Origin: Nitrospirota bacterium
GTDB lineage: Bacteria; Nitrospirota; Thermodesulfovibrionia; UBA6902
Assembly: GCA_040758255.1 (NCBI GenBank)
Contig: JBFLVX010000003.1
Coordinates: forward strand, 1-45,481
Reading direction: 5' to 3'
Length of the DNA: 45,481 nt
The position numbers and the translations under genes were made by a program. Within the stretch, counting starts at the first letter, position 1. Every line of letters begins with the position of its first letter. The notes under the pieces were generated by a model. The model was given only the letters and a program-made list of their open reading frames with translations. It searched no databases and was not told where the DNA came from. Shown here piece by piece: positions 17,048 to 38,976 of the stretch.

Positions 17048-17368
17048 ATGAAGAAGAAGGCAAAAGAGCCGGCTGTCCCGGCGGAACGGCACGAGACTAT
17101 TCGCCAGAGCATCATAACTCTGCTTGAAGGACAGACCCTTTTCGCAAAAGAGATATCAGCAGATGTCAGGGTTTCAGAGAAAGATGTATATGAGCATCTT
17201 GAACATATACAGAAGAGGAGAGATGTGAGCCTGCTTGTCCTTCCTGCCGAATGCAAAAGGTGCGGTTATAAATTTATCAAGCGGGAGAGGCTTAGAAAAC
17301 CCGGCAGATGCCCGGAATGCAAAGGGGAATCAATACAGGAACCGCTTTTCAGCATCAGCAAAAAATAG
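17048..17368 (+). CDS. Small HTH + Zn-ribbon putative transcriptional regulator
   Basis: EKDVYEHLEHI, CKRCG, CPECK. Confidence 0.75.
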   Translation: MKKKAKEPAVPAERHETIRQSIITLLEGQTLFAKEISADVRVSEKDVYEHLEHIQKRRDVSLLVLPAECKRCGYKFIKRERLRKPGRCPECKGESIQEPLFSISKK

Positions 17369-17391: not shown

Positions 17392-18174
17392 CTACTTCAG
17401 CTGCTTTTCAATGAACCTATGGAGCAACGCAACAGCTCCGGCTATATCTTCTGTTTGCGGCAGGTATCTTGCGATTCTCTTTAAGTAATCCCGCTCCTTC
17501 AGCAGTCTGTATGAGGCTTTGAAATTCATGGCATAACCCCATGAGAGGTTCATTAATTTGAAATCATTCACGCTCCTTAGTGAAGCGTAAGATACCTTTT
17601 GCTCTTTATAAATACGCTCAAGTATCTCTTTTGAATATTCAGGCACATCAGGCAGTCCAAAGGCTGTTGCAGATGCCCTCTCCTCAGCCGGGCTCTCATA
17701 AAAATTAATGAATACCCGCAGTATATCGAGCTTGTCAGCATCACGTACTAATTTCAGAAAGAGAGTAAGCTCTTCGTCCTTAAGATCAGGCATCTGAAAG
17801 ACATTATGGAACTTCACGGAGTTGATGATTAGATGCTTCTCCGCATCTGCAAGATTCTTTAAGACAGCCTTCTCCTCCAGAATCCTTGCGCCAAGGAGGC
17901 CGTGATTAACTGATTTGTTGTCCTGAAAAGTCTTGTACTTTATATACTGCGAAAACCTTCCTACATCATGAAAGAGCGCTATCGTCTCCGCCAAGATCAC
18001 CTTCTTAAAAGAAAGAGGCAGGGACACTGCTATTTCTTTTATATTGGAGCATACATTCTGAGTATGCTCTGCCTTAAGACGGAGGTTTCTGTTATCGCCC
18101 TCATCGTCTCCAAAGAAAGAGCCTGTATAATCCGAGAACCACTCTTTTAGATAGTTAAGATCATCTCCGGTCAT
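17392..18174 (-). CDS. HD-domain phosphohydrolase
   Basis: K.EHT, LFHDVGRF.Q, NHG, RDADKLDI. Confidence 0.8.
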   Translation of the reverse strand: MTGDDLNYLKEWFSDYTGSFFGDDEGDNRNLRLKAEHTQNVCSNIKEIAVSLPLSFKKVILAETIALFHDVGRFSQYIKYKTFQDNKSVNHGLLGARILEEKAVLKNLADAEKHLIINSVKFHNVFQMPDLKDEELTLFLKLVRDADKLDILRVFINFYESPAEERASATAFGLPDVPEYSKEILERIYKEQKVSYASLRSVNDFKLMNLSWGYAMNFKASYRLLKERDYLKRIARYLPQTEDIAGAVALLHRFIEKQLK

Positions 18175-18236
18175 AAATTAAGTCTCACTTGTATTTTTTG
18201 TCCATGTTCTTTGCTCTTGGTTCTGTGTTCTATCCT

Positions 18237-19568
18237 TTAATACTGATACTCATACGCCATCTGATCCATGGAATCACTGCGCAGGAGATATTTCACATTA
18301 TCCTCAGCGATCATCTTAAAGGCATGCACGATTATATCTTTATAGAAATCGCAGAAGACCGCCTTCTTGTTGATATTGCCCCGGGAATACATTTCTGCCG
18401 GACAGGGAGAGCCGCAGATATGCCTGAAGTCACATACGTCACACTCTTCAATATTCTCCACCATCCTTGACCGAATTTCTTTGAAGGGTTTTGATTCCAT
18501 CGCCTTTGCGATTGATGTCTTGAAGATGTTTCCGCCTGAGAACTCCTTCATGCCGATAAATTCTCCGCATGGAACCATCGCCCCGTCTGCTGTGACGGTG
18601 AGGAATGTCCTGCCTCCTCCGCATGGAGAGATGTCGCACATCATGCGTCTTGCCGTCGGCGATATGATAGCCAGCAATACGTTTGCAAAGTTGCCGATAA
18701 CGATCTGCTGCTTGGTCTTCTTTGTAAGATCCATCGCTGTCTCAACAGCCTTTATCAGGTTCTGCGCAAAGGCCTTGTCATCAGGCTTCACCATGTCTGT
18801 GCGCTTCTGTGTAACACGGACAGGATTCAGAAGCACCATCGGCACCTTCTTTTTGTGAAGGAATTTAACATGCTCGGAAAGTTTATCTACGTTGTATTTG
18901 TTAACCGTGCAGATTACATTAAGGCCTTCATATCCCTTAAACCAGTCGATCGCCTGCATAGCCTTCTTGAAATTCCCCTCGCCCTTTCTTGAAATGCGGG
19001 AGCGGTTATTCACCTCGGCAGTGGACGCGTCAAGTGAAATGCCGATGCCCACGCGATACTTCTTTATAAAATCAACATCCTCTTTTTCCAGCAAAAGCGC
19101 GTTGGTCTGTATGCCGAAGAGCATCTTTTTGTGATACTTCCTGATCGCGCCGAAGAGAATATCTTTCACAAGAAGCGGCTCGGCAGCATGAAAGACTATC
19201 ACGGGTTTCTTCTTCGCGCCCTTAAAATGATCCTCAACCTTGCTGAGGACAGTATCAAGTTGTTCAGCAGTCATCTGCGTTCCCTCCCGCCTTATCTTTG
19301 AAGGTATGTAGCAGTACGGGCAGTTGGCATTGCACCTGTCTGTAGGGTCAATGTATACGCAGTTCAAAGGCTCATTGAACCTGAAGTTATACATCTCAGT
19401 ATCGAGATGCTTCATCTCTTTTTTGTAAAGGTCTATCAAATTCTGGGGAAGCGTGAAGTCGCCGTTCTTCCTCGGCAGTACGCTCCAAAATATATTGTCA
19501 GGATCAAGCGCCAGTTTCCAGTCAGCATCAATATCAGAGAATGAGAGTCCGCGGTTATTTTGTTTCAT
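18237..19568 (-). CDS. cbpB: Peptide-modifying radical SAM/SPASM enzyme, CbpB-like
   Basis: Start moved to ATG 19568 (AGGAG RBS; the longer ORF runs through repeats); LDPDNIFW, CNANCPYC, SPASM CDISPCGGG/PCGEF/CDVCDFRHICGSPC. Confidence 0.8.
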   Translation of the reverse strand: MKQNNRGLSFSDIDADWKLALDPDNIFWSVLPRKNGDFTLPQNLIDLYKKEMKHLDTEMYNFRFNEPLNCVYIDPTDRCNANCPYCYIPSKIRREGTQMTAEQLDTVLSKVEDHFKGAKKKPVIVFHAAEPLLVKDILFGAIRKYHKKMLFGIQTNALLLEKEDVDFIKKYRVGIGISLDASTAEVNNRSRISRKGEGNFKKAMQAIDWFKGYEGLNVICTVNKYNVDKLSEHVKFLHKKKVPMVLLNPVRVTQKRTDMVKPDDKAFAQNLIKAVETAMDLTKKTKQQIVIGNFANVLLAIISPTARRMMCDISPCGGGRTFLTVTADGAMVPCGEFIGMKEFSGGNIFKTSIAKAMESKPFKEIRSRMVENIEECDVCDFRHICGSPCPAEMYSRGNINKKAVFCDFYKDIIVHAFKMIAEDNVKYLLRSDSMDQMAYEYQY

Positions 19569-19584
19569 TGATTTTCTCCTTGTT

Positions 19585-19763
19585 CTGTCATTCCGGGCTT
19601 GACCCGGAATCCAGTTTTTTAGATAATTTTTGTACCACTCCTGTAAAAACAGAAATCCACCCTTCGACAGGCTCAGGGTGACTTCGTATGTCATGGTGAG
19701 CTTGTCGAACCATGGATTCCCGTTTTCACGGGAATGACAGCAGGGGCACGCCGTGCCCCTGCT
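19585..19763. repeat. Nested REP-like palindromes in the peptide-rSAM spacer
   Basis: ctgtcattcc...ggaatgacag outer inverted repeat; cttcgacaggctcag...gagcttgtcgaa inner element; agcaggggcacg-c-cgtgcccctgct hairpin. Confidence 0.8.
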
Positions 19764-19771
19764 CTTAAATC

Positions 19772-19900
19772 CTACAACGGCATCTTCTTTTTAGGCACGT
19801 CTCCGTACATGACGAAATGAGTCAGGCCGTTAGCGGTCTTGGCGCACTTCATGTGATAAGAGATGGCCTGAACTTTTTTTGCCTTGTTCGCCTTCTTCAA
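19772..19900 (-). CDS. cbpA: 42-aa precursor peptide, CbpA-like (MKKANKAKKVQAISYHMKCAKTANGLTHFVMYGDVPKKKMPL); absent from the ORF track
   Basis: TTG start 5 nt after the cobD stop, with AGGAGGT RBS; Cys-x5-GLTHF core; directly upstream of the SPASM rSAM gene. Confidence 0.75.
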   Translation of the reverse strand: MKKANKAKKVQAISYHMKCAKTANGLTHFVMYGDVPKKKMPL

Positions 19901-19905
19901 ATAAT

Positions 19906-21018
19906 TCACCTCCTTTCTTTACCAGATTTTATGTCGGAAAGTTCCCTTAACAGCATTTCGTTATCGCCTCGTGATTTAACAGCAACCCTGATATAAGAGC
20001 TGCCAAGCCCTCTGAAGTTTGAACAATCTCTGACAAGGATGCCTTTTTCTCTCAGGCCTGAAACTATTCTTTCAGAGTTTTTTTCTTTCAATAAATAATA
20101 ATTCACACTTGACGGCAAGTACTCAACATTTAATTCCTGAAAACTCTTTTCGAGAAATTCTTTTTCTCTCTTTATCAATTCATGTGTTTTAGCAGCATAT
20201 TCATAATCTGCGAGAGCGGCGATTGCCGTCTTTTGGGCAAGGTTATTTACTGTCCACGGTTCTTTGAATTGCCTGATCTTATTAATTGAATCCTTATGAA
20301 AAACCCCGTACCCGATCCTTAATCCTGTAAGCGCATAAAACTTTGTCATTGACCGAAGAACTATCAAATATGGGTTCTCCTGAACATCCTGAATCACCGA
20401 TTCTTCAGGAACAAAATCAATGAACGCCTCATCAACAACAAGATAACATTTCATCTTCCTTGCCGCCTCGGCAATCGCAAGTACCTTGTCTCTCTTTAAA
20501 AGATGTCCTGTTGGGTTGTTAGGGTTGCAGAGGAAAATGAGTTGAGAGTTAAAAGAAAGAGCCTCGATTGTGGATATGAATTCGTCAGCGATTATCCTGA
20601 AGCTATTTTCTTCTTTTAACTCATAACTCTCAACTCTTAACTCCGAACTCAATCTGCACGCCCTCTCATATTCTGAAAATGTCGGCGTAGGGATGAGAAC
20701 GGTCTTAGGCTTTAGCGCGCGCGGAATTAGATAAATAAGCTCCGTACTCCCGTTGCCGCAGATGATCGTCTCAGGGTCAATGTCATGATATTCGGCAATC
20801 TTATGCCTCAGCATCTTTGTATCGGGATCGGGATAATTAACCAGACTGTTCAACTCCCTCTTTATCACGTCCTTCACCTTCTCTGAAATGCCGAGAGGAT
20901 TGATGGATGCGCTGAAGTCAATGAGCTTCTCTGCAGGGATACCGATCTCTTCCGCAATCCTGTAGATATTGCCGCCATGCTCAGATAAGTTTTGAGTTGT
21001 GGTTTTCTCTTTAATCAT
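19906..21018 (-). CDS. cobD: L-threonine-O-3-phosphate decarboxylase
   Basis: HGGN, DFSASINPLG, CNPNNPTG, VDEAF, RSMTKFYAL.GLR.GY. Confidence 0.9.
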   Translation of the reverse strand: MIKEKTTTQNLSEHGGNIYRIAEEIGIPAEKLIDFSASINPLGISEKVKDVIKRELNSLVNYPDPDTKMLRHKIAEYHDIDPETIICGNGSTELIYLIPRALKPKTVLIPTPTFSEYERACRLSSELRVESYELKEENSFRIIADEFISTIEALSFNSQLIFLCNPNNPTGHLLKRDKVLAIAEAARKMKCYLVVDEAFIDFVPEESVIQDVQENPYLIVLRSMTKFYALTGLRIGYGVFHKDSINKIRQFKEPWTVNNLAQKTAIAALADYEYAAKTHELIKREKEFLEKSFQELNVEYLPSSVNYYLLKEKNSERIVSGLREKGILVRDCSNFRGLGSSYIRVAVKSRGDNEMLLRELSDIKSGKERR

Positions 21019-22067
21019 AGAATGTTCCTCATATACAGCAGTATCAACGCAAGACCAAATCCAAACAGAGAGGTAATTTTAACAATGGATATGGCATTCT
21101 CTGAAGCATTGCTATACATTTCTTTAACTCCTGACTTTTCCTCGCCTATGTAAGGTTTCTCAACGAGCATCCCAGCGTAAAATGAAGGGCCTCCGAGCCT
21201 GACACCGAGCGCCCCAGCCATTGCAGCCTCCGGGATCCCGCTGTTCGGGCTTAAATGTTTCCTGCCGTCGCGGAGTAAAATGTTCAAACTGTTTGAACAT
21301 TTTAAGCCGGTTGAACGATTTGAACCGATATTCAGAACACGCATTAACTTGTTGATTGAGCTTAATATGGTTGTCGCAATAATTATTAGAGCCCCTGTTA
21401 TCCTAGCAGGGATAAAATTGACGACATCATCAAGCCTCGCAGAGGCCCATCCGAAGTTCTTGTACTTCTCATTCCTGTATCCAACCATTGAATCAAGCGT
21501 GTTGACCGCCTTGTAAGCCATAGCCAGCGGCAAGCCGCCAATGGCGAAGTAGAACATTGGGGCGATTATTCCGTCTGAAGCATTTTCAGAAAGCGTCTCG
21601 ATAACCGCCTTCAATACGCCTTTGTCGTCCAGTTCTTTTGTGTCCCTGCCGACGATCATACTAAGCTTTCTTCTCGCGCCTTCCTTATCCCCTCGATTCA
21701 CGGCGTCAATTACAGCCTTGCCGGATTTAACAAGGTCATTTATTGCGAGAGTCGTTGATGTGAGATATATAAGGATCGCGAAAAACAAATACGAAATGAG
21801 AAACGGGAAGCGGGAAGTAAGAAGTAGAGAATTAAGCGCATAAAATATTGAATATGTTGCTCCAACAATTATTATTACAAGGAGAATGCCCGCAAGCTTC
21901 TCTTTCAGTCTGTGTTCTGTGTTCTGTGTTCTACGCTCTCTTCTCAATACTTCCTCCATTTTTTCAATTCCCCATCCGATAAACCTCACGGGATGCGGCA
22001 GCCAATGGGGGTCGCCGATAAGCAGGTCCAATATGTATGCTCCCGTCAGGATTACCACCTCTGTCAT
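21015..22067 (-). CDS. cbiB: Adenosylcobinamide-phosphate synthase
   Basis: GDP...PHPV, IVGRDT, ENASDG, NTLDSMVGY, SPNSG. Confidence 0.92.
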   Translation of the reverse strand: MTEVVILTGAYILDLLIGDPHWLPHPVRFIGWGIEKMEEVLRRERRTQNTEHRLKEKLAGILLVIIIVGATYSIFYALNSLLLTSRFPFLISYLFFAILIYLTSTTLAINDLVKSGKAVIDAVNRGDKEGARRKLSMIVGRDTKELDDKGVLKAVIETLSENASDGIIAPMFYFAIGGLPLAMAYKAVNTLDSMVGYRNEKYKNFGWASARLDDVVNFIPARITGALIIIATTILSSINKLMRVLNIGSNRSTGLKCSNSLNILLRDGRKHLSPNSGIPEAAMAGALGVRLGGPSFYAGMLVEKPYIGEEKSGVKEMYSNASENAISIVKITSLFGFGLALILLYMRNIL

Positions 22068-23677
22068 AATTTACCCTTTGTTATGCAATGTTCCATCCCG
22101 ACCTGCCTGAGCATAAAACAGATGTCAACACTGCTCTTTAAAACATCCGCCCATTTATTGATCGCTTCCTCTTTTTCCGCCTGATAGTTAAAGCCGGATT
22201 GGGACTGAAGCCCTTTCCGTTCCCTAAGTGAATTCAACAACGCAGTGCGGAATTCATCGTTATCAAAGATGCCGTGTATGTACGTGCCCCAGACGTTTCC
22301 TTTAATTGAACCATCGGAGATTGAACGGTTTAAACCGTTTGAACCGTTTAAACGGTTAATCCTGAACAATCCAATATCACCTGTTGTCTGGCCCATATGT
22401 ATTTCATAGCCCTTCAATGAATTCTTATCACTCTTAACTCCTAACTCTAAACTCTGAACTATTTCCCCTTCCACCTGACATGTTGTCTTTGCCTTGTCGT
22501 AAGTTGTTTCAATATCAAGAAGCCCGAATCCTGCGATTTCTTTATGACCGCTTTCAACGCCGTGCGGGTCATAAATCTTTTTGCCAAGCATCTGATAGCC
22601 GCCGCAGATACCGGCAAGAGGGATGTCTTTTTCTGCAGCGGATTTCACACATGCCTCTATTCCGCTCTCTCTCAATAGAAGCAAATCGCTAACCGTATTC
22701 TTTGAGCCGGGGATTATAATGAGGTCGGCGTTTTGGATGTCATCTTCCCGCAGAGAATATTTCAGCTCAATATCTGGCTCATGGAGAAACGGTGCGAAGT
22801 CCGTGAAGTTTGAGATGTACTTTAACCGCAGGACAACAACTTTAATTGTTTTAAACGCTGAACGCTGAACGCTGAATGCTGAACGCCTTTCAAGCGACAA
22901 TCCATCCTCTTCATCAAGCCGCAGGTCAGGTTGATGGTACAAGGTGCCGATGACAAGCTTGCCTGTCTTATGCTCAATCATCCTCAATCCCGGACGGAGA
23001 ATATCCATATCGCCCCTGAACTTATTTACGATAAATCCCTTGATGTAATCGGCATCGGATAATTCCCCTCTATCAAGAGGAGTTAGGGGTGTGTTCCCCA
23101 CTTTAGCAAAGGGGGGCAAGGGGGGATTTTTCAACAACTCCACTGTCCCGTAAAAAGCTGCAAAGACACCCCCTTTATCTATATCTCCAACGAGGATCAC
23201 GGGGGCATCGGCATAACGCGCCATTCTCATATTCACAACATCTTCTCTCGTGAGATTGATCTCTGCCGGACTGCCCGCGCCTTCGATCACAATGAGGTCA
23301 TATTGTTTTGAAAGCCTGTCATATGCCGCAGTGATTACTTCCCATACTTTATCTTTAATTGAATAATATTCCTGCGCCTTCATAGAGGCATGCACCTTGC
23401 CGTTTAATATCACCTGACATCCTGCCTCGCCAGTTGCTTTGAGCAGCACAGGGTTCATGTCGTTTGACGGCTCGATGCCTGCGGCTTCAGCCTGAAACGC
23501 CTGCGCCCGTCCGATCTCTCCGCCCTCTTTTGTGATGAAGGAATTGAGCGCCATGTTCTGCGCCTTAAAGGGAGCGACCTTGATGCCCATGTCCCTGAAT
23601 ATCCTGCAGAGGCCTGCAACGATGACGCTCTTGCCCGCGCCGGAACCTGTTCCCTGTATCATTAATGCTTTAGCCAT
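22064..23677 (-). CDS. cobQ: Cobyric acid synthase
   Basis: GTGSGAGKS, FKAQNM, EGAGSPAE, ISNFTD, GICGGYQMLG, GYEIH, GTYIHG. Confidence 0.93.
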   Translation of the reverse strand: MAKALMIQGTGSGAGKSVIVAGLCRIFRDMGIKVAPFKAQNMALNSFITKEGGEIGRAQAFQAEAAGIEPSNDMNPVLLKATGEAGCQVILNGKVHASMKAQEYYSIKDKVWEVITAAYDRLSKQYDLIVIEGAGSPAEINLTREDVVNMRMARYADAPVILVGDIDKGGVFAAFYGTVELLKNPPLPPFAKVGNTPLTPLDRGELSDADYIKGFIVNKFRGDMDILRPGLRMIEHKTGKLVIGTLYHQPDLRLDEEDGLSLERRSAFSVQRSAFKTIKVVVLRLKYISNFTDFAPFLHEPDIELKYSLREDDIQNADLIIIPGSKNTVSDLLLLRESGIEACVKSAAEKDIPLAGICGGYQMLGKKIYDPHGVESGHKEIAGFGLLDIETTYDKAKTTCQVEGEIVQSLELGVKSDKNSLKGYEIHMGQTTGDIGLFRINRLNGSNGLNRSISDGSIKGNVWGTYIHGIFDNDEFRTALLNSLRERKGLQSQSGFNYQAEKEEAINKWADVLKSSVDICFMLRQVGMEHCITKGKL

Positions 23678-26164: not shown

Positions 26165-26689
26165 TTATCCTTTTATCTTTATCGGTATCCCGGCTGTTAC
26201 CAAATAAACCTCATCTGAGATCTCCGCGACCTTCTGATTTACATATCCCGCCGCATCCCTGAACCTCCTCGCAAGTTCGTTCTCAGGCACAATGCCCATG
26301 CCGACCTCGTTAGAGACGATAAAGAGTTTCGGGGTTTCGGGTTTCGGGTTTATTAAAACATCTATTAAATCATCTGTCTCTTTACCGAAATTCATATCGC
26401 CGCAAATCAAATTCGACAGCCAGAGTGTCAGGCAATCAAGCACGATAACGCTGTACTTATCCTTAATATCCGCAATAATCTCAGGCACCTTCAGCGGCTC
26501 TTCAAAAGTATCCCAGTCAGCGCCGCGTTCGTCTTTATGTTTCCTGATGCGCTCCTTCATCTCATCATCAAGCGCCTGAGCAGTGGCGATGTGAGCCTTT
26601 TGCCCTTTGATCTTCGCTGCCTCTCTCAACGCAAAAGAGCTCTTTCCGCTCCTCGTCCCGCCTATGACAAAGGTGATTCTGGATTCCAT
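26165..26689 (-). CDS. cobU: Adenosylcobinamide kinase/guanylyltransferase
   Basis: GG.RSGKS, RI..H...R, DCLTLW.SN, NEVG.GIVP. Confidence 0.93.
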
Positions 26690-27894
26690 TATCTTCCTTC
26701 CCGGTTAATCAAAGAAAATAATACCGCGTCAACCTCATCTATCAGCTCTTTGAACATCCCGCCGTGGCTTTTGGAGTCTGAAAACAACTCAAGCCTTTTA
26801 TCTTTAATCCTCTCGTCATCACATCTTTCATAGGTGATATGGCCCTTCTGCATAGCCTGTCTTTCAAGCAGCAGAAGTTTCTTGGCCTTTTCAATAAAAG
26901 GAATGAGCATCTCCATGATTCTTTTTATCTCATTGTCCGCGCTCTTCTCTTTTGTAATTTCCTTAATCATGATGTACAGAGTGTTGTACTCAAGCCCTCT
27001 TACGCCGCGTCTCCATTGCAGGAGCATAGGGTTTCTCCAGAACCAGAGAAAGTTCCGCTTGCCGAATATGATGAGTTCGTTTACCGTTCTTTCAAGCTCA
27101 ACAGTAAGTTTGGAGTTTACCTCCAAGCTTCCGCGCTTCCGCGCTTCCGCGTTAGCTTGAGACCCTCCAAGATATGTCCAAAGATTTGTTAAGACTGCCG
27201 CTCCATTCATATCATCCGGCGTGTCAAAATGCACGAGTGACAAGATCACTTTGCCTTTTCCATAACTGCCCTCAATTATTGAAGGCTCTCCTATCAGCCT
27301 CTCCGGATCAAGATTTATCCGGTAAATCTCTTCATGCTCTTTCCAGCCGCCATTAGCTTCTGTGTCCCCGACATTAAGGTCAGAGCTGAATGAATCAGGC
27401 AGCGCCTTCCCATATGAGGCAAGCACTTTAATTTCCTTGTCTTCAACATCAAACTGAGAAGGCCACCAGGCATGGAAAATATTTGAACCCTGATCCAGCC
27501 ATATCTGATGCTCATTTATATTCAGCTCTATCCTGCCGCTAAAGCTCGGCACTCTCTCTTTGGTGGGCCTTCTTTTTACATTCAACAGCCCGATGCCGCC
27601 TTCAGCCTTTGTTGCTAATCCTGCGCCTCCGCAGAAACCTAAATAGTTCCCTCCGTTCGCTACAAAATGTTGGATCGCGCTTCTTCCGGCTTCTCCAAGC
27701 GCCTTGCCCTTATTGGATGCCCATCCGCCCGGCACAAAAAGCATCCCATATTTATCAAGCGCGCCTCTCTTTATATCTTCCGCCCTTATCAGATCAAAAG
27801 GCAGGCCAAGTCCCTTCAGCGCCTTATAAGCCATAATGCCCCATAGAAAAGATTCATCCCACAAAAAAGCGGCTTTCTTTGTCCCGGTCTTCAT
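26689..27894 (-). CDS. BPL-N / class I glutamine-amidotransferase-like domain protein of unknown function
   Basis: LFVPGG, F...GG.YLGFCGGAG nucleophile elbow, YGKGKV.LS..H. Confidence 0.65.
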   Translation of the reverse strand: MKTGTKKAAFLWDESFLWGIMAYKALKGLGLPFDLIRAEDIKRGALDKYGMLFVPGGWASNKGKALGEAGRSAIQHFVANGGNYLGFCGGAGLATKAEGGIGLLNVKRRPTKERVPSFSGRIELNINEHQIWLDQGSNIFHAWWPSQFDVEDKEIKVLASYGKALPDSFSSDLNVGDTEANGGWKEHEEIYRINLDPERLIGEPSIIEGSYGKGKVILSLVHFDTPDDMNGAAVLTNLWTYLGGSQANAEARKRGSLEVNSKLTVELERTVNELIIFGKRNFLWFWRNPMLLQWRRGVRGLEYNTLYIMIKEITKEKSADNEIKRIMEMLIPFIEKAKKLLLLERQAMQKGHITYERCDDERIKDKRLELFSDSKSHGGMFKELIDEVDAVLFSLINREGR

Positions 27895-27895
27895 T

Positions 27896-28651
27896 TTATA
27901 TTTTGTACTTGCTCCCGTAACCTCTCGGCGTCACCATTTTGTCTTTCCAGATAAAGGTCATGGAATTGCCGATTATCACCATGCTTTGCATATCTATCTT
28001 ATGGCCGGGCAAATTCCCCAGATCCGTTATGATGATCTCTTCTTCATCTCTTGTGGCAGCCCTCACGATCCCGACAGGGGTCTGAGCAGGCCTGTGCTTA
28101 AGAATAATATCCCTCGCCTTCATTATGTGTTCCGGCCTCCCCTTGCTTTTCGGGTTATAGATGACTATTACAAAATCCGCTGAAGCCGCTGCTTCAAGCC
28201 TCTTCTCGATCATCTCCCAAGGCGTAAGCAGATCGCTCAAACTTATTGACGCGAAATCATGCATCAGCGGAGCGCCGAGCCTTGAGGCGGACGCATTCAG
28301 CGCCGCAACCCCGGGGATCACTTCAACATCCATCTCAATATCTTTTGCCTGCAAAACCTCAAAGACGAGTCCTGCCATCGCATAAATCCCCGGATCGCCG
28401 CTGCATATAACAGCAACCTTCTTCCCGCTTTCAGCAAGCTCCACAGCCTTTGCGCATCTCTCAACTTCCTGCCTCATCCCTGAAGAGAGAACCGTCTTCT
28501 CTTTGATAAGCTCACGAATAAGGGCAAGATAAGTCTTATAGCCGACTATAATCTCGGATTCTTCAATCGCCTTCTTTGCCGCAGGTGTTAAATGTTCCGT
28601 ACCGCCCGGGCCTATGCCTACAATGTAAATTCCGCCTCTGCTATCGCTAAT
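27896..28651 (-). CDS. cbiH: Cobalt-precorrin-3B C17-methyltransferase; start non-canonical (ATT 28651?) or reached by frameshift from cbiG
   Basis: Frame open upstream of the track start, giving IYIVGIGPG...GYKTY; SGDPGIY, HDF..ISLSDLLTPW, YNPKS, TPRGY. Confidence 0.85.
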   Translation of the reverse strand: MSDSRGGIYIVGIGPGGTEHLTPAAKKAIEESEIIVGYKTYLALIRELIKEKTVLSSGMRQEVERCAKAVELAESGKKVAVICSGDPGIYAMAGLVFEVLQAKDIEMDVEVIPGVAALNASASRLGAPLMHDFASISLSDLLTPWEMIEKRLEAAASADFVIVIYNPKSKGRPEHIMKARDIILKHRPAQTPVGIVRAATRDEEEIIITDLGNLPGHKIDMQSMVIIGNSMTFIWKDKMVTPRGYGSKYKI

Positions 28652-38660: not shown

Positions 38661-38700
38661 TAAAAATCCCCGGCCTTCAATAAAGAAAGCCGGGGATAAA
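38661..38700 (-). terminator. Riboswitch expression-platform hairpin (terminator and/or RBS sequestrator) just before the cbiA ATG
   Basis: Minus strand atccccggc-loop-gccggggat followed by tttt, then atATG. Confidence 0.65.
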
Positions 38701-38760
38701 AGCCAAAATAACCTTTATCCTCACAGCCTCTTACCACGAAGGCTTCTTCAGTGAGGTATA

Positions 38761-38934
38761 TTCAGGCAGGTCTTCTGGCTCACCCGGCCTTTATCCGCCT
38801 TCCCTTTCCGGACTTCTGAAAAGTGGCTTTACGATAAAGGTGTTATCCCGAATGAATCGGGATCAGGATTTACAGCGGCGGGTCCGCTCCAGTATTTCAC
38901 TGGATTCCCCTTTAAGCCCCTAAGGGCGCCTGAA
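38761..38934 (-). ncRNA. Cobalamin riboswitch
   Basis: Minus strand ttcaggcgc..gcttaaaggggaatccagtgaaatactggagcgg.cccgccgctgtaa..gccact..gggaaggc..gagccagaagacctgcctgaa (B12-box), upstream of the cob operon. Confidence 0.93.
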
Positions 38935-38945
38935 CAACGCAGATG

Positions 38946-38976
38946 ATTATAACTTATAAGCTTTGGAGAATGTCAA
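38946..38976 (-). promoter_or_regulatory. Sigma70-like promoter of the cob operon
   Basis: TTGACA-19 bp-TATAAT about 11 nt upstream of the riboswitch. Confidence 0.6.

Follow-up and report, generated by a model that had tools for sequence, protein, structure and literature searches.

At the 3' end of a cobalamin operon in a Nitrospirota bacterium, two neighbouring genes, cbpA and cbpB, encode a 42-residue peptide and a radical S-adenosylmethionine (SAM) enzyme of the SPASM type. They lie in a 45,481-nt stretch of contig JBFLVX010000003.1, which was analysed at its full length and is called the window below. Judged by its sequence, the window peptide is a divergent CbpA homologue of a catalogued family; the pair is already listed in NCBIfam, and the window copy is ordinary in function and setting and divergent in the sequence of its peptide. 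We lean, by a little, towards reading cbpA and cbpB as a ribosomal peptide and its maturase that serve the production of cobamides (vitamin B12) inside the cell. No paper on the chemistry or function of CbpA/CbpB was found (supplementary files were outside the search), in agreement with a preliminary description of the window, made from the DNA letters alone, that had called the product chemically uncharacterised.

A divergent peptide gene and its proposed maturase

CbpB (443 aa; 18237-19568, on the minus strand like cbpA, the cbi/cob genes and the HD gene of the operon) was assigned as a radical SAM/SPASM peptide maturase by TIGR04163, PF04055 and PF13186. The match to TIGR04163 (rSAM_cobopep) spans profile positions 10-425 of 428 and reaches 500.2 bits against a cut-off of 375 (E 4.2e-150), and a search of the whole genome with the same model returned CbpB at 500.5 bits. 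The preliminary description had placed a radical SAM/SPASM gene behind the peptide, and this score together with the Pfam matches Radical_SAM and SPASM bears it out. Members of TIGR04163 are described as neighbours of a short peptide gene among genes for cobalamin biosynthesis. The ATG at 19568 was chosen as the start of cbpB rather than 19694, because an AAGGAG site precedes it, homologues begin there and the 126 nt upstream are palindromic repeat; the ATG at 19694 falls inside DNA resembling repetitive extragenic palindromes (REP). In 33 CbpB sequences the three cysteines of the CxxxCxxC motif (C79, C83 and C86) and eight SPASM cysteines (C311, C316, C334, C376, C379, C385, C389 and C406) are invariant, which at the sequence level directly supports CbpB as a complete radical SAM enzyme whose SPASM domain carries two auxiliary clusters. 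An AlphaFold model of CbpB (predicted local distance difference test, pLDDT, 87.7) places three short strands and one long helix in the approximately 70 residues ahead of the core, and no PqqD-like domain was detected in CbpB with Pfam. The closest solved relatives, CteB, anSME, ChlB, TigE, SuiB and SkfB, all modify peptides, and among NCBIfam models for peptide maturases CbpB scored 134.9 bits with DynA, 128.2 with PapB and 121.1 with anSME. CbpB proteins from other phyla are 51-59% identical to the window copy.

The peptide gene cbpA (19772-19900, minus strand) is a precursor-like gene of 42 codons with a TTG start and a stop at 19772-19774. Its ribosome-binding site AGGAGGTGA (19906-19914, minus strand) consists of the last two codons and the stop of cobD and lies 5 nt before the TTG, the codons AGG AGG and the TGA stop (19914-19906) forming the GGAGGTGA site. 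As this site sits 5 nt ahead of the TTG, we prefer this start over a GTG that would give a longer version of the frame (19772-19909, 45 aa). The TTG frame with a ribosome site over the cobD stop had been noticed in the preliminary description, and frame, residues and site could all be confirmed. The first 11 residues of CbpA are rich in lysine and variable, and residues 12-42 form a conserved core. The gene occurs once in its own genome, and the exact 42-aa product is already present, unnamed, in NCBI and ENA sources.

Two sets of loci were read for the company of this gene. The first comprised 22 CbpB loci from 41 related genomes, in which the peptide was searched by tblastn, and the second the best 80 of at least 594 CbpB loci (from 599 candidate stretches, with at least six phylum labels), searched with a profile built from the relatives' peptides; the sets overlap in some genomes. 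Loci are numbered with L and related genomes with G in the following. cbpA was found directly upstream of CbpB in 20 of the 22 loci (E 1e-15 to 1e-24) and in 75 of the 80, so that the conservation next to radical SAM homologues on which the preliminary description had staked its proposal is seen in both sets. In four of the seven loci lacking cbpA (L005, L034, L083 and L097) the sequence breaks off a few hundred bases or less from where cbpB starts, and the other three (L007 and L037, which are the same sequence, and L084) represent two genomes that have the peptide gene on another contig. Start codons were assigned at 68 loci as TTG (33), ATG (30) and GTG (5), with seven loci left out by the motif filter and a wrong assignment at L092, where the frame is open through the upstream gene; a GGAGGTGA-type site stands at the right spacing in nearly every copy. 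Within L024-L065, which are mostly labelled Nitrospirota, 33 of 42 assigned starts were TTG and the remainder ATG or GTG.

When the 31 core codons were compared between 63 sequences, variation was most frequent at the third codon base (30 codons; first base 20, second base 17), and 26249 synonymous differences were counted versus 12456 non-synonymous ones. The invariant residues Ser14, Gly25, Leu26 and Gly33 are each encoded by four to six different codons. A collection of 5.8 billion proteins holds 724 clusters of CbpA homologues, named, if at all, 'hypothetical protein'. A translated gene under purifying selection at the protein level is directly supported by these codon comparisons, together with the conserved ribosome site and start.

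The family model for the peptide did not recognise it. TIGR04164 (cobo_pep, CbpA; 25 positions, cut-off 35 bits) gave no match at E<=10 with either the 42-aa or the 45-aa version, and nothing at the cbpA position when the whole genome was searched. The preliminary description had given the numbers TIGR04163 and TIGR04164 correctly and had advised a search with both; the enzyme half of that expectation held at 500.2 bits and the peptide half did not, and its remark that the core appears divergent fits the silence of TIGR04164 even at E<=10. For comparison, canonical CbpA peptides were collected from the phylum of L099, where 8 of 201 genomes exceeded the TIGR04164 cut-off and 12 loci were read. 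All 12 canonical cbpA genes adjoin a CbpB that is 38-42% identical to that of the window. Canonical peptides and the window branch have a common skeleton of Ile-Ser/Ala-Tyr/Phe-Arg/His-x-x-Cys, 5-7 residues and Gly-Leu-Ser/Thr-His-Tyr/Phe-Ile/Val, with a Cys-to-His spacing of 9 in the window peptide and, for example, in that of L108. The window branch, whose loci bear the labels Nitrospirota, Omnitrophota, Planctomycetota and others, has in addition a Lys-rich tail and a Met-Tyr-Gly-Asp stretch that does not vary. The short-core peptides of L100, L102 and L103 lack the Met-Tyr-Gly-Asp addition and bridge both branches, and that of L103 reaches 19.7 bits with TIGR04164. Identity to the window peptide is 50-64% in other phyla and 43% in L103. 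Ser14, Asn24, Gly25, Leu26 and His28 are invariant in 33 aligned peptides and Cys19 is present in 32 of them, being Gly in L100; within 63 long-type cores Cys19, Met31, Tyr32, Gly33 and Asp34 are invariant. As the window peptide shares the skeleton and the position upstream of CbpB and is not matched by TIGR04164, it is a divergent CbpA beyond the reach of the curated model. The preliminary description had proposed the TIGR04163/TIGR04164 system, and with the intermediate of L103 and the shared skeleton the system is indeed present, in divergent form.

A complex of CbpB, CbpA, three 4Fe-4S clusters and SAM was modelled. The model scored 0.91, compared to 0.02 for the best control; 58 of 80 solved complexes attain this mark, as do 2 of 110 mismatched pairs. 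Between runs the contacts agreed by at least 66%, and the pLDDT of the partner was at least 51. Peptide residues 10-33 are predicted to contact CbpB residues 27-32, 302-312 and 436-443 as well as barrel strands. CbpA residues 12-17 would extend the three-stranded sheet at the N-terminus of CbpB (residues 27-32) by a strand, pairing with residues 27-31, and be clamped by the conserved C-terminal tail (439-442), and residues 18-33 would enter the barrel, touching the inner strands and the 302-312 loop. The model supports binding of CbpA to CbpB. Family score, adjacency and complex model agree in what the preliminary description had suggested, a real peptide gene paired with a radical SAM/SPASM enzyme.

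Between cbpA and cbpB lie 203 nt, the widest intergenic gap of the operon. A perfect 12-bp GC-rich stem-loop with no T run follows 8 nt past the cbpA stop (19739-19763, minus strand), and the rest of the spacer (19569-19738, minus strand) is a palindromic REP-like mosaic with hairpins at 19716-19735 and 19590-19610 and a 47-nt imperfect palindrome (19636-19736). The window has a single copy of the 23-nt hairpin unit at 19716-19738; further copies follow cbpA in L025, L031, L052 and L057, and near-copies were seen in L028 and L056. When a stem-loop was defined by a dG of -15 kcal/mol or lower in the first 60 nt past the cbpA stop, 50 of 65 loci had one, with a mean of -22.9 versus -11.6 kcal/mol for shuffled sequences. 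For the 62 loci with controls, such structures were counted 48 times after cbpA, 15 times after the cbpB stop and 10 times before cbpA, and the stems after cbpA vary in sequence between loci. Neither a sigma-70-like promoter nor a T-run terminator was found on the minus strand of the spacer. The stem-loop at 19739-19763 is probably a transcript-stabilising or attenuating structure; a stem-loop that raises the peptide message over the enzyme message is usual for precursor genes.

Link to cobalamin genes and possible role

The best 80 CbpB loci are labelled Nitrospirota, Omnitrophota, Planctomycetota, Bacillota, Firestonebacteria, Hydrogenedentota and Deltaproteobacteria, and co-directional cob/cbi genes accompany cbpAB in 77 of them. 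Directly upstream of cbpA we found cbiO (31 loci), cbiB (11), cobD (5), cobS (4), cobQ (3), a gene for a 401-aa protein (3), cbiL, cbiH and cobU (2 each) and cobC, cbiX and cobT (1 each), hence 12 different neighbour genes, and in 14 loci no gene within 800 nt. The constant company of cob/cbi genes at a shifting position indicates that the pair is linked to the whole pathway and not to one step. A cobalamin-type riboswitch of its own stands directly upstream of cbpA in 14 of 20 loci scanned, namely in all 12 canonical loci and in L073 and L086. Among the neighbours of cbpAB within 4 kb no protease or exporter was recognised, and CbpA has no hydrophobic signal stretch.

In L075 (2002-3700), L077 (2077-3712) and L092 (2872-3993) two genes resembling PP-loop ATPases by motif only, SGGLD (asparagine-synthase-like) and SGGKE, are placed directly upstream of cbpA, and in L092 no stop separates the frame of the first of them from cbpA. 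In L075 and L077 cbpB is followed by another, small gene that resembles radical SAM genes, again by motif only.

Of the 41 related genomes, 22 have CbpB and 20 have CbiD, with both in 17 and neither in 16. Five CbpB-positive relatives are without CbiD (G010, G015, G016, G022 and G032). For G010, G015 and G016, which are 92, 98 and 99% complete, no cbiD, true cbiF or cbiH was found, although such absences rest on draft genomes and are no proof; G015 keeps cbiB. In G022 and G032 cbiF, cbiH and cbiB are present and cbiD was not found. The locus of G010 is on a cut contig, and its neighbourhood is unreadable. cbpAB stands beside a small CbiX-type gene and an HD gene in G015 (L010) and G016 (L015), in the latter with a cbiE-like gene too, and L030 and L036 look similar.

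From these observations a role for the pair may be sketched. CbpB would abstract a hydrogen atom from the bound peptide and install an intramolecular cross-link in the stretch Cys19...Asn24-Gly-Leu-Thr-His28, most likely a thioether from the single cysteine, or alternatively a link from His or an aromatic residue to a C-beta. The stem-loop after cbpA would make the transcript of the peptide longer-lived or more abundant than the enzyme transcript and so provide a stoichiometric supply of peptide. The matured, Lys-rich peptide would then stay in the cell as an accessory factor, an intracellular location being favoured because no protease, exporter or signal stretch was recognised. There it may bind cobalt or, more likely, a cobalt-corrinoid intermediate via His28 and Cys19, and the bound intermediate would be protected or handed on during late assembly, with expression of cbpAB tied to the B12 status via the riboswitch of the operon. 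A corrinoid intermediate is favoured over cobalt alone, since G010, G015 and G016 keep CbpB without the genes for ring synthesis, and G015 still has cbiB.

Several points weigh against this reading. Modification, metal binding and corrinoid binding of CbpA are proposals, site and type of the cross-link are guesses, and Cys19 is replaced by Gly in L100. CbiD occurs without CbpB in G025, in G039 and in G003 (where the hit is on a cut contig), and as there are B12 producers without CbpB, the pair is dispensable for the pathway. In L010, L015 and L036 a small gene for a CbiX-type chelatase is next to cbpA, which keeps a role in cobalt handling alive. The score of the complex model may partly be owed to solved look-alikes (CteB, SuiB, ChlB and anSME with peptides), and the alignments and ligands used differ from those of the method's calibration. 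The hairpins after cbpA are partly REP-like mobile palindromes, which gather in any long spacer, and related loci in the stem-loop count are not independent. Finally, the proposed co-transcription of cbpA from a riboswitch 19 kb upstream is deduced from the gene layout.

The alternative that survives best, put forward in the preliminary description, is one we consider unlikely: a matured peptide that acts as a cobalt-specific chelator or metallochaperone, passing the metal from the CbiMNQO importer to the CbiX chelatase with His, Cys and Met as ligands. The frequent position of cbiO upstream of cbpA and of cbiD directly downstream of cbpB (26 of 80) agree with it, as do the small CbiX-type gene that abuts cbpA or cbpB in L010, L015, L030 and L036 and the invariant core residues listed above. 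The latter argument is limited by the Gly at position 19 in L100 and by the lack of Met-Tyr-Gly-Asp in L100, L102 and L103. Against a cobalt chaperone speak the other upstream neighbours (cbiB, cobD, cobS, cobQ, cobU, cobT, cobC, cbiH, cbiL and the 401-aa protein), the 13 kb that separate the window pair from cbiMNQO, and the retention of CbpB in G010, G015 and G016 without cbiD, cbiF and cbiH.

A more specific form of the accessory-factor reading, speculative and rather unlikely in all its details, would have CbpA as an intracellular carrier whose His (with Cys) ligates the corrinoid cobalt 'His-on', while the Lys-rich ends hold the polycarboxylate ring; the carrier would shield the intermediates and pass them between the late cobamide enzymes. 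If true, CbpA would be the first ribosomally synthesised and post-translationally modified peptide (RiPP) acting as a chaperone in vitamin biosynthesis and, as we assume, the anaerobic counterpart of carrier proteins such as CobE.

It is improbable that the peptide is instead the precursor of a small diffusible cofactor or of a compound resembling a lower ligand for use in cobamide assembly, cross-linked by CbpB and excised by other enzymes in the manner of pyrroloquinoline quinone (PQQ) or mycofactocin. Its core is conserved across phyla to the same degree as the enzyme (50-64% versus 51-59% identity to the window copies), which is typical of cofactor precursors and not of antibiotics; the high-copy stem-loop arrangement after cbpA presumably resembles that of pqqA, and the PP-loop ATPase-like genes flank cbpA in the three loci named above. 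However, the 80 loci show no conserved peptidase or additional tailoring enzyme alongside the pair, and the conserved part of approximately 20-30 residues is far beyond the need of a cofactor core. Equally little probability is given to a CbpB whose substrate would be a corrinoid or tetrapyrrole, as with the SPASM-type enzymes AhbC/AhbD and NirJ, CbpA being a helper or scaffold. The setting is a tetrapyrrole pathway and weak NCBIfam matches to AhbC (68 bits) and NirJ1 (63.7 bits) were obtained, but DynA, PapB and anSME score higher, all nearest solved structures belong to peptide modifiers, and the model threads CbpA residues 18-33 into the barrel. That the frame arose by chance or is a regulatory leader peptide in the cobD-cbpB spacer, as its shortness, TTG start and lack of a family match might suggest, is hardly credible given amino acid conservation with synonymous change, 724 homologue clusters, conservation across at least six phylum labels and a complex model that supports binding to CbpB.

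CbpA/CbpB is one of few radical SAM peptide systems wired into a pathway of primary metabolism and not into an antibiotic cluster. TIGR04164 leaves a large branch of the peptide family unrecognised, namely that with the 724 clusters and with loci labelled Nitrospirota, Omnitrophota and Planctomycetota, the stem-loop after the peptide gene appears as a conserved part of the design, and the persistence of the pair in genomes seemingly unable to build the corrin ring narrows its possible roles.

The operon of the window and its HD gene

The only Rfam match within the window is a cobalamin riboswitch aptamer at 38748-38948 on the minus strand (RF00174, 98.6 bits, gathering score 31.5). A terminator-like stem of 13 pairs with a T run lies just 3' of it (38697-38666, minus strand) and is likely the expression platform. 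Behind the riboswitch follow 20 cbi/cob genes with small gaps and then cbpA, cbpB and the HD gene, a string of approximately 21 kb, and the preliminary description was right to place the pair in a cobalamin-riboswitch operon. The order is cbiA, a cbiX-cbiC fusion, cbiM, a 113-aa open reading frame (ORF), cbiQ, cbiO, cbiD, cbiET, cbiL, cbiF, cbiG, cbiH, the gene for the 401-aa protein, cobU, cobT, cobS, cobC, cobQ, cbiB, cobD, cbpA, cbpB and HD. The 113-aa ORF between cbiM and cbiQ had no family match and is called cbiN by position only. cobD (19906-21018, minus strand) encodes threonine-phosphate decarboxylase (TIGR01140, 345 bits with a cut-off of 290.55). Terminator-like sites inside the operon numbered 18, compared to 18.7 in shuffled sequences, and are hence not enriched. 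From the gene layout we infer that cbpA is controlled by the riboswitch 19 kb upstream and would be 'cobalamin-repressed', as the preliminary description had put it.

The last gene of the operon encodes an HD-domain protein (PF01966; 17392-18174, minus strand) and begins 62 nt past the cbpB stop, as stated in the preliminary description. A convergent 106-aa gene (17048-17368, plus strand) with PF0610-like winged-helix and zinc-ribbon domains lies 23 nt from the HD stop, and therefore the operon ends at HD. The preliminary description had also counted the HD protein as a possible part of the peptide module, which was rejected. The HD gene was present in 14 of the 80 loci, all of them within L024-L065 (mostly labelled Nitrospirota/Thermodesulfovibrionia), and directly followed cbpB in one of the 14; in the others it follows cbiL, usually overlapping its stop, or a cbiE-like gene. 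In the 22 loci of the relatives it follows cbpB in L010, L013 and L021 and stands farther off in L012 and L015. It recurs where Nitrospirota B12 operons end and is probably a member of these operons, not of the cbpAB module. Structure comparison in the ESM Atlas returned plain HD proteins; in one neighbour cluster HD is joined to His_Phos_1, a domain family to which the ribazole phosphatase CobC belongs. The HD protein may be a phosphohydrolase of nucleotide-loop assembly.

Some other genes of the operon depart from their profiles. The terminator-like stem of the riboswitch falls inside the GTG-start ORF of cbiA (region 38666-38737), and since cbiA profiles match from residue 27-30 only, the real start is downstream of the stem. 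CobQ (22064-23677, 537 aa) aligns to its 480-position profile as two separate segments, of which the first spans residues 3-184, with extra sequence between them, and CbiB (21015-22067) has 350 aa for a profile of 305 positions; the extra sequence in both resembles in-frame insertions, possibly of repeat origin. The cbiH ORF (27896-28617) lacks the first 51 profile positions and is separated from cbiG by 140 nt, a pattern that a frameshift, a sequencing error or an overlooked start could explain. The 401-aa protein (26689-27894, minus strand), encoded between cbiH and cobU, had no NCBIfam match and a weak Pfam match to BPL_N. It is present in 19 of the 41 relatives, including the CbpB-less G025 and G039 and 16 of the 20 CbiD-positive genomes, and was not seen in relatives without cbiD, cbiF and cbiH. 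As CbiJ (TIGR00715) was not found in any of the 41, the 401-aa protein is a candidate stand-in for cobalt-precorrin-6A reductase.

Comparison with known systems

The nearest known system is the canonical CbpA/CbpB pair, with which the window shares an enzyme at equivalog level, a peptide gene directly upstream, the cobalamin operon and the peptide skeleton. It differs in the longer core, the missing TIGR04164 match and the TTG start, and while canonical cbpA has its own riboswitch in 12 of 12 loci, the window gene has no dedicated one. Small conserved peptides with a SPASM radical SAM enzyme in a metabolic operon, and not in an antibiotic cluster, are presumably also found in PqqA/PqqE and MftA/MftC; in contrast to these, cbpAB comes without a PqqD-type chaperone, a peptidase or further tailoring genes, and PqqE and MftC are not among the best 25 NCBIfam matches of CbpB.

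The best solved relative by sequence is CteB, which acts on CteA as a sactisynthase of the SCIFF (six cysteines in forty-five residues) type (PDB 5wgg/5why; E 1.2e-19), and it is the best by fold as well (Foldseek E 4.8e-20, template modelling (TM) score 0.68-0.73 to CbpB). Both enzymes have a radical SAM core and a full SPASM domain with two auxiliary clusters, and in both an N-terminal element binds, or in CbpB is predicted to bind, the peptide as an added strand. Differences are the identity of approximately 20%, the approximately 70 residues ahead of the CbpB core, which appear to fall short of a full RiPP recognition element (RRE), and the single cysteine of CbpA as opposed to six in CteA. 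The anaerobic sulfatase maturase anSME (PDB 4k36-4k39) resembles CbpB in its SPASM fold (TM 0.81-0.84 by target length), and its target is one Cys or Ser residue in a peptide or protein. CbpB scores 121 bits with the corresponding model TIGR03942, far below the cut-off of that family, and a sulfatase motif is not visible in CbpA by inspection. The substrate of CbpB is most likely a dedicated small peptide in a different genomic setting, and it is in this respect that the pair stands apart from anSME.

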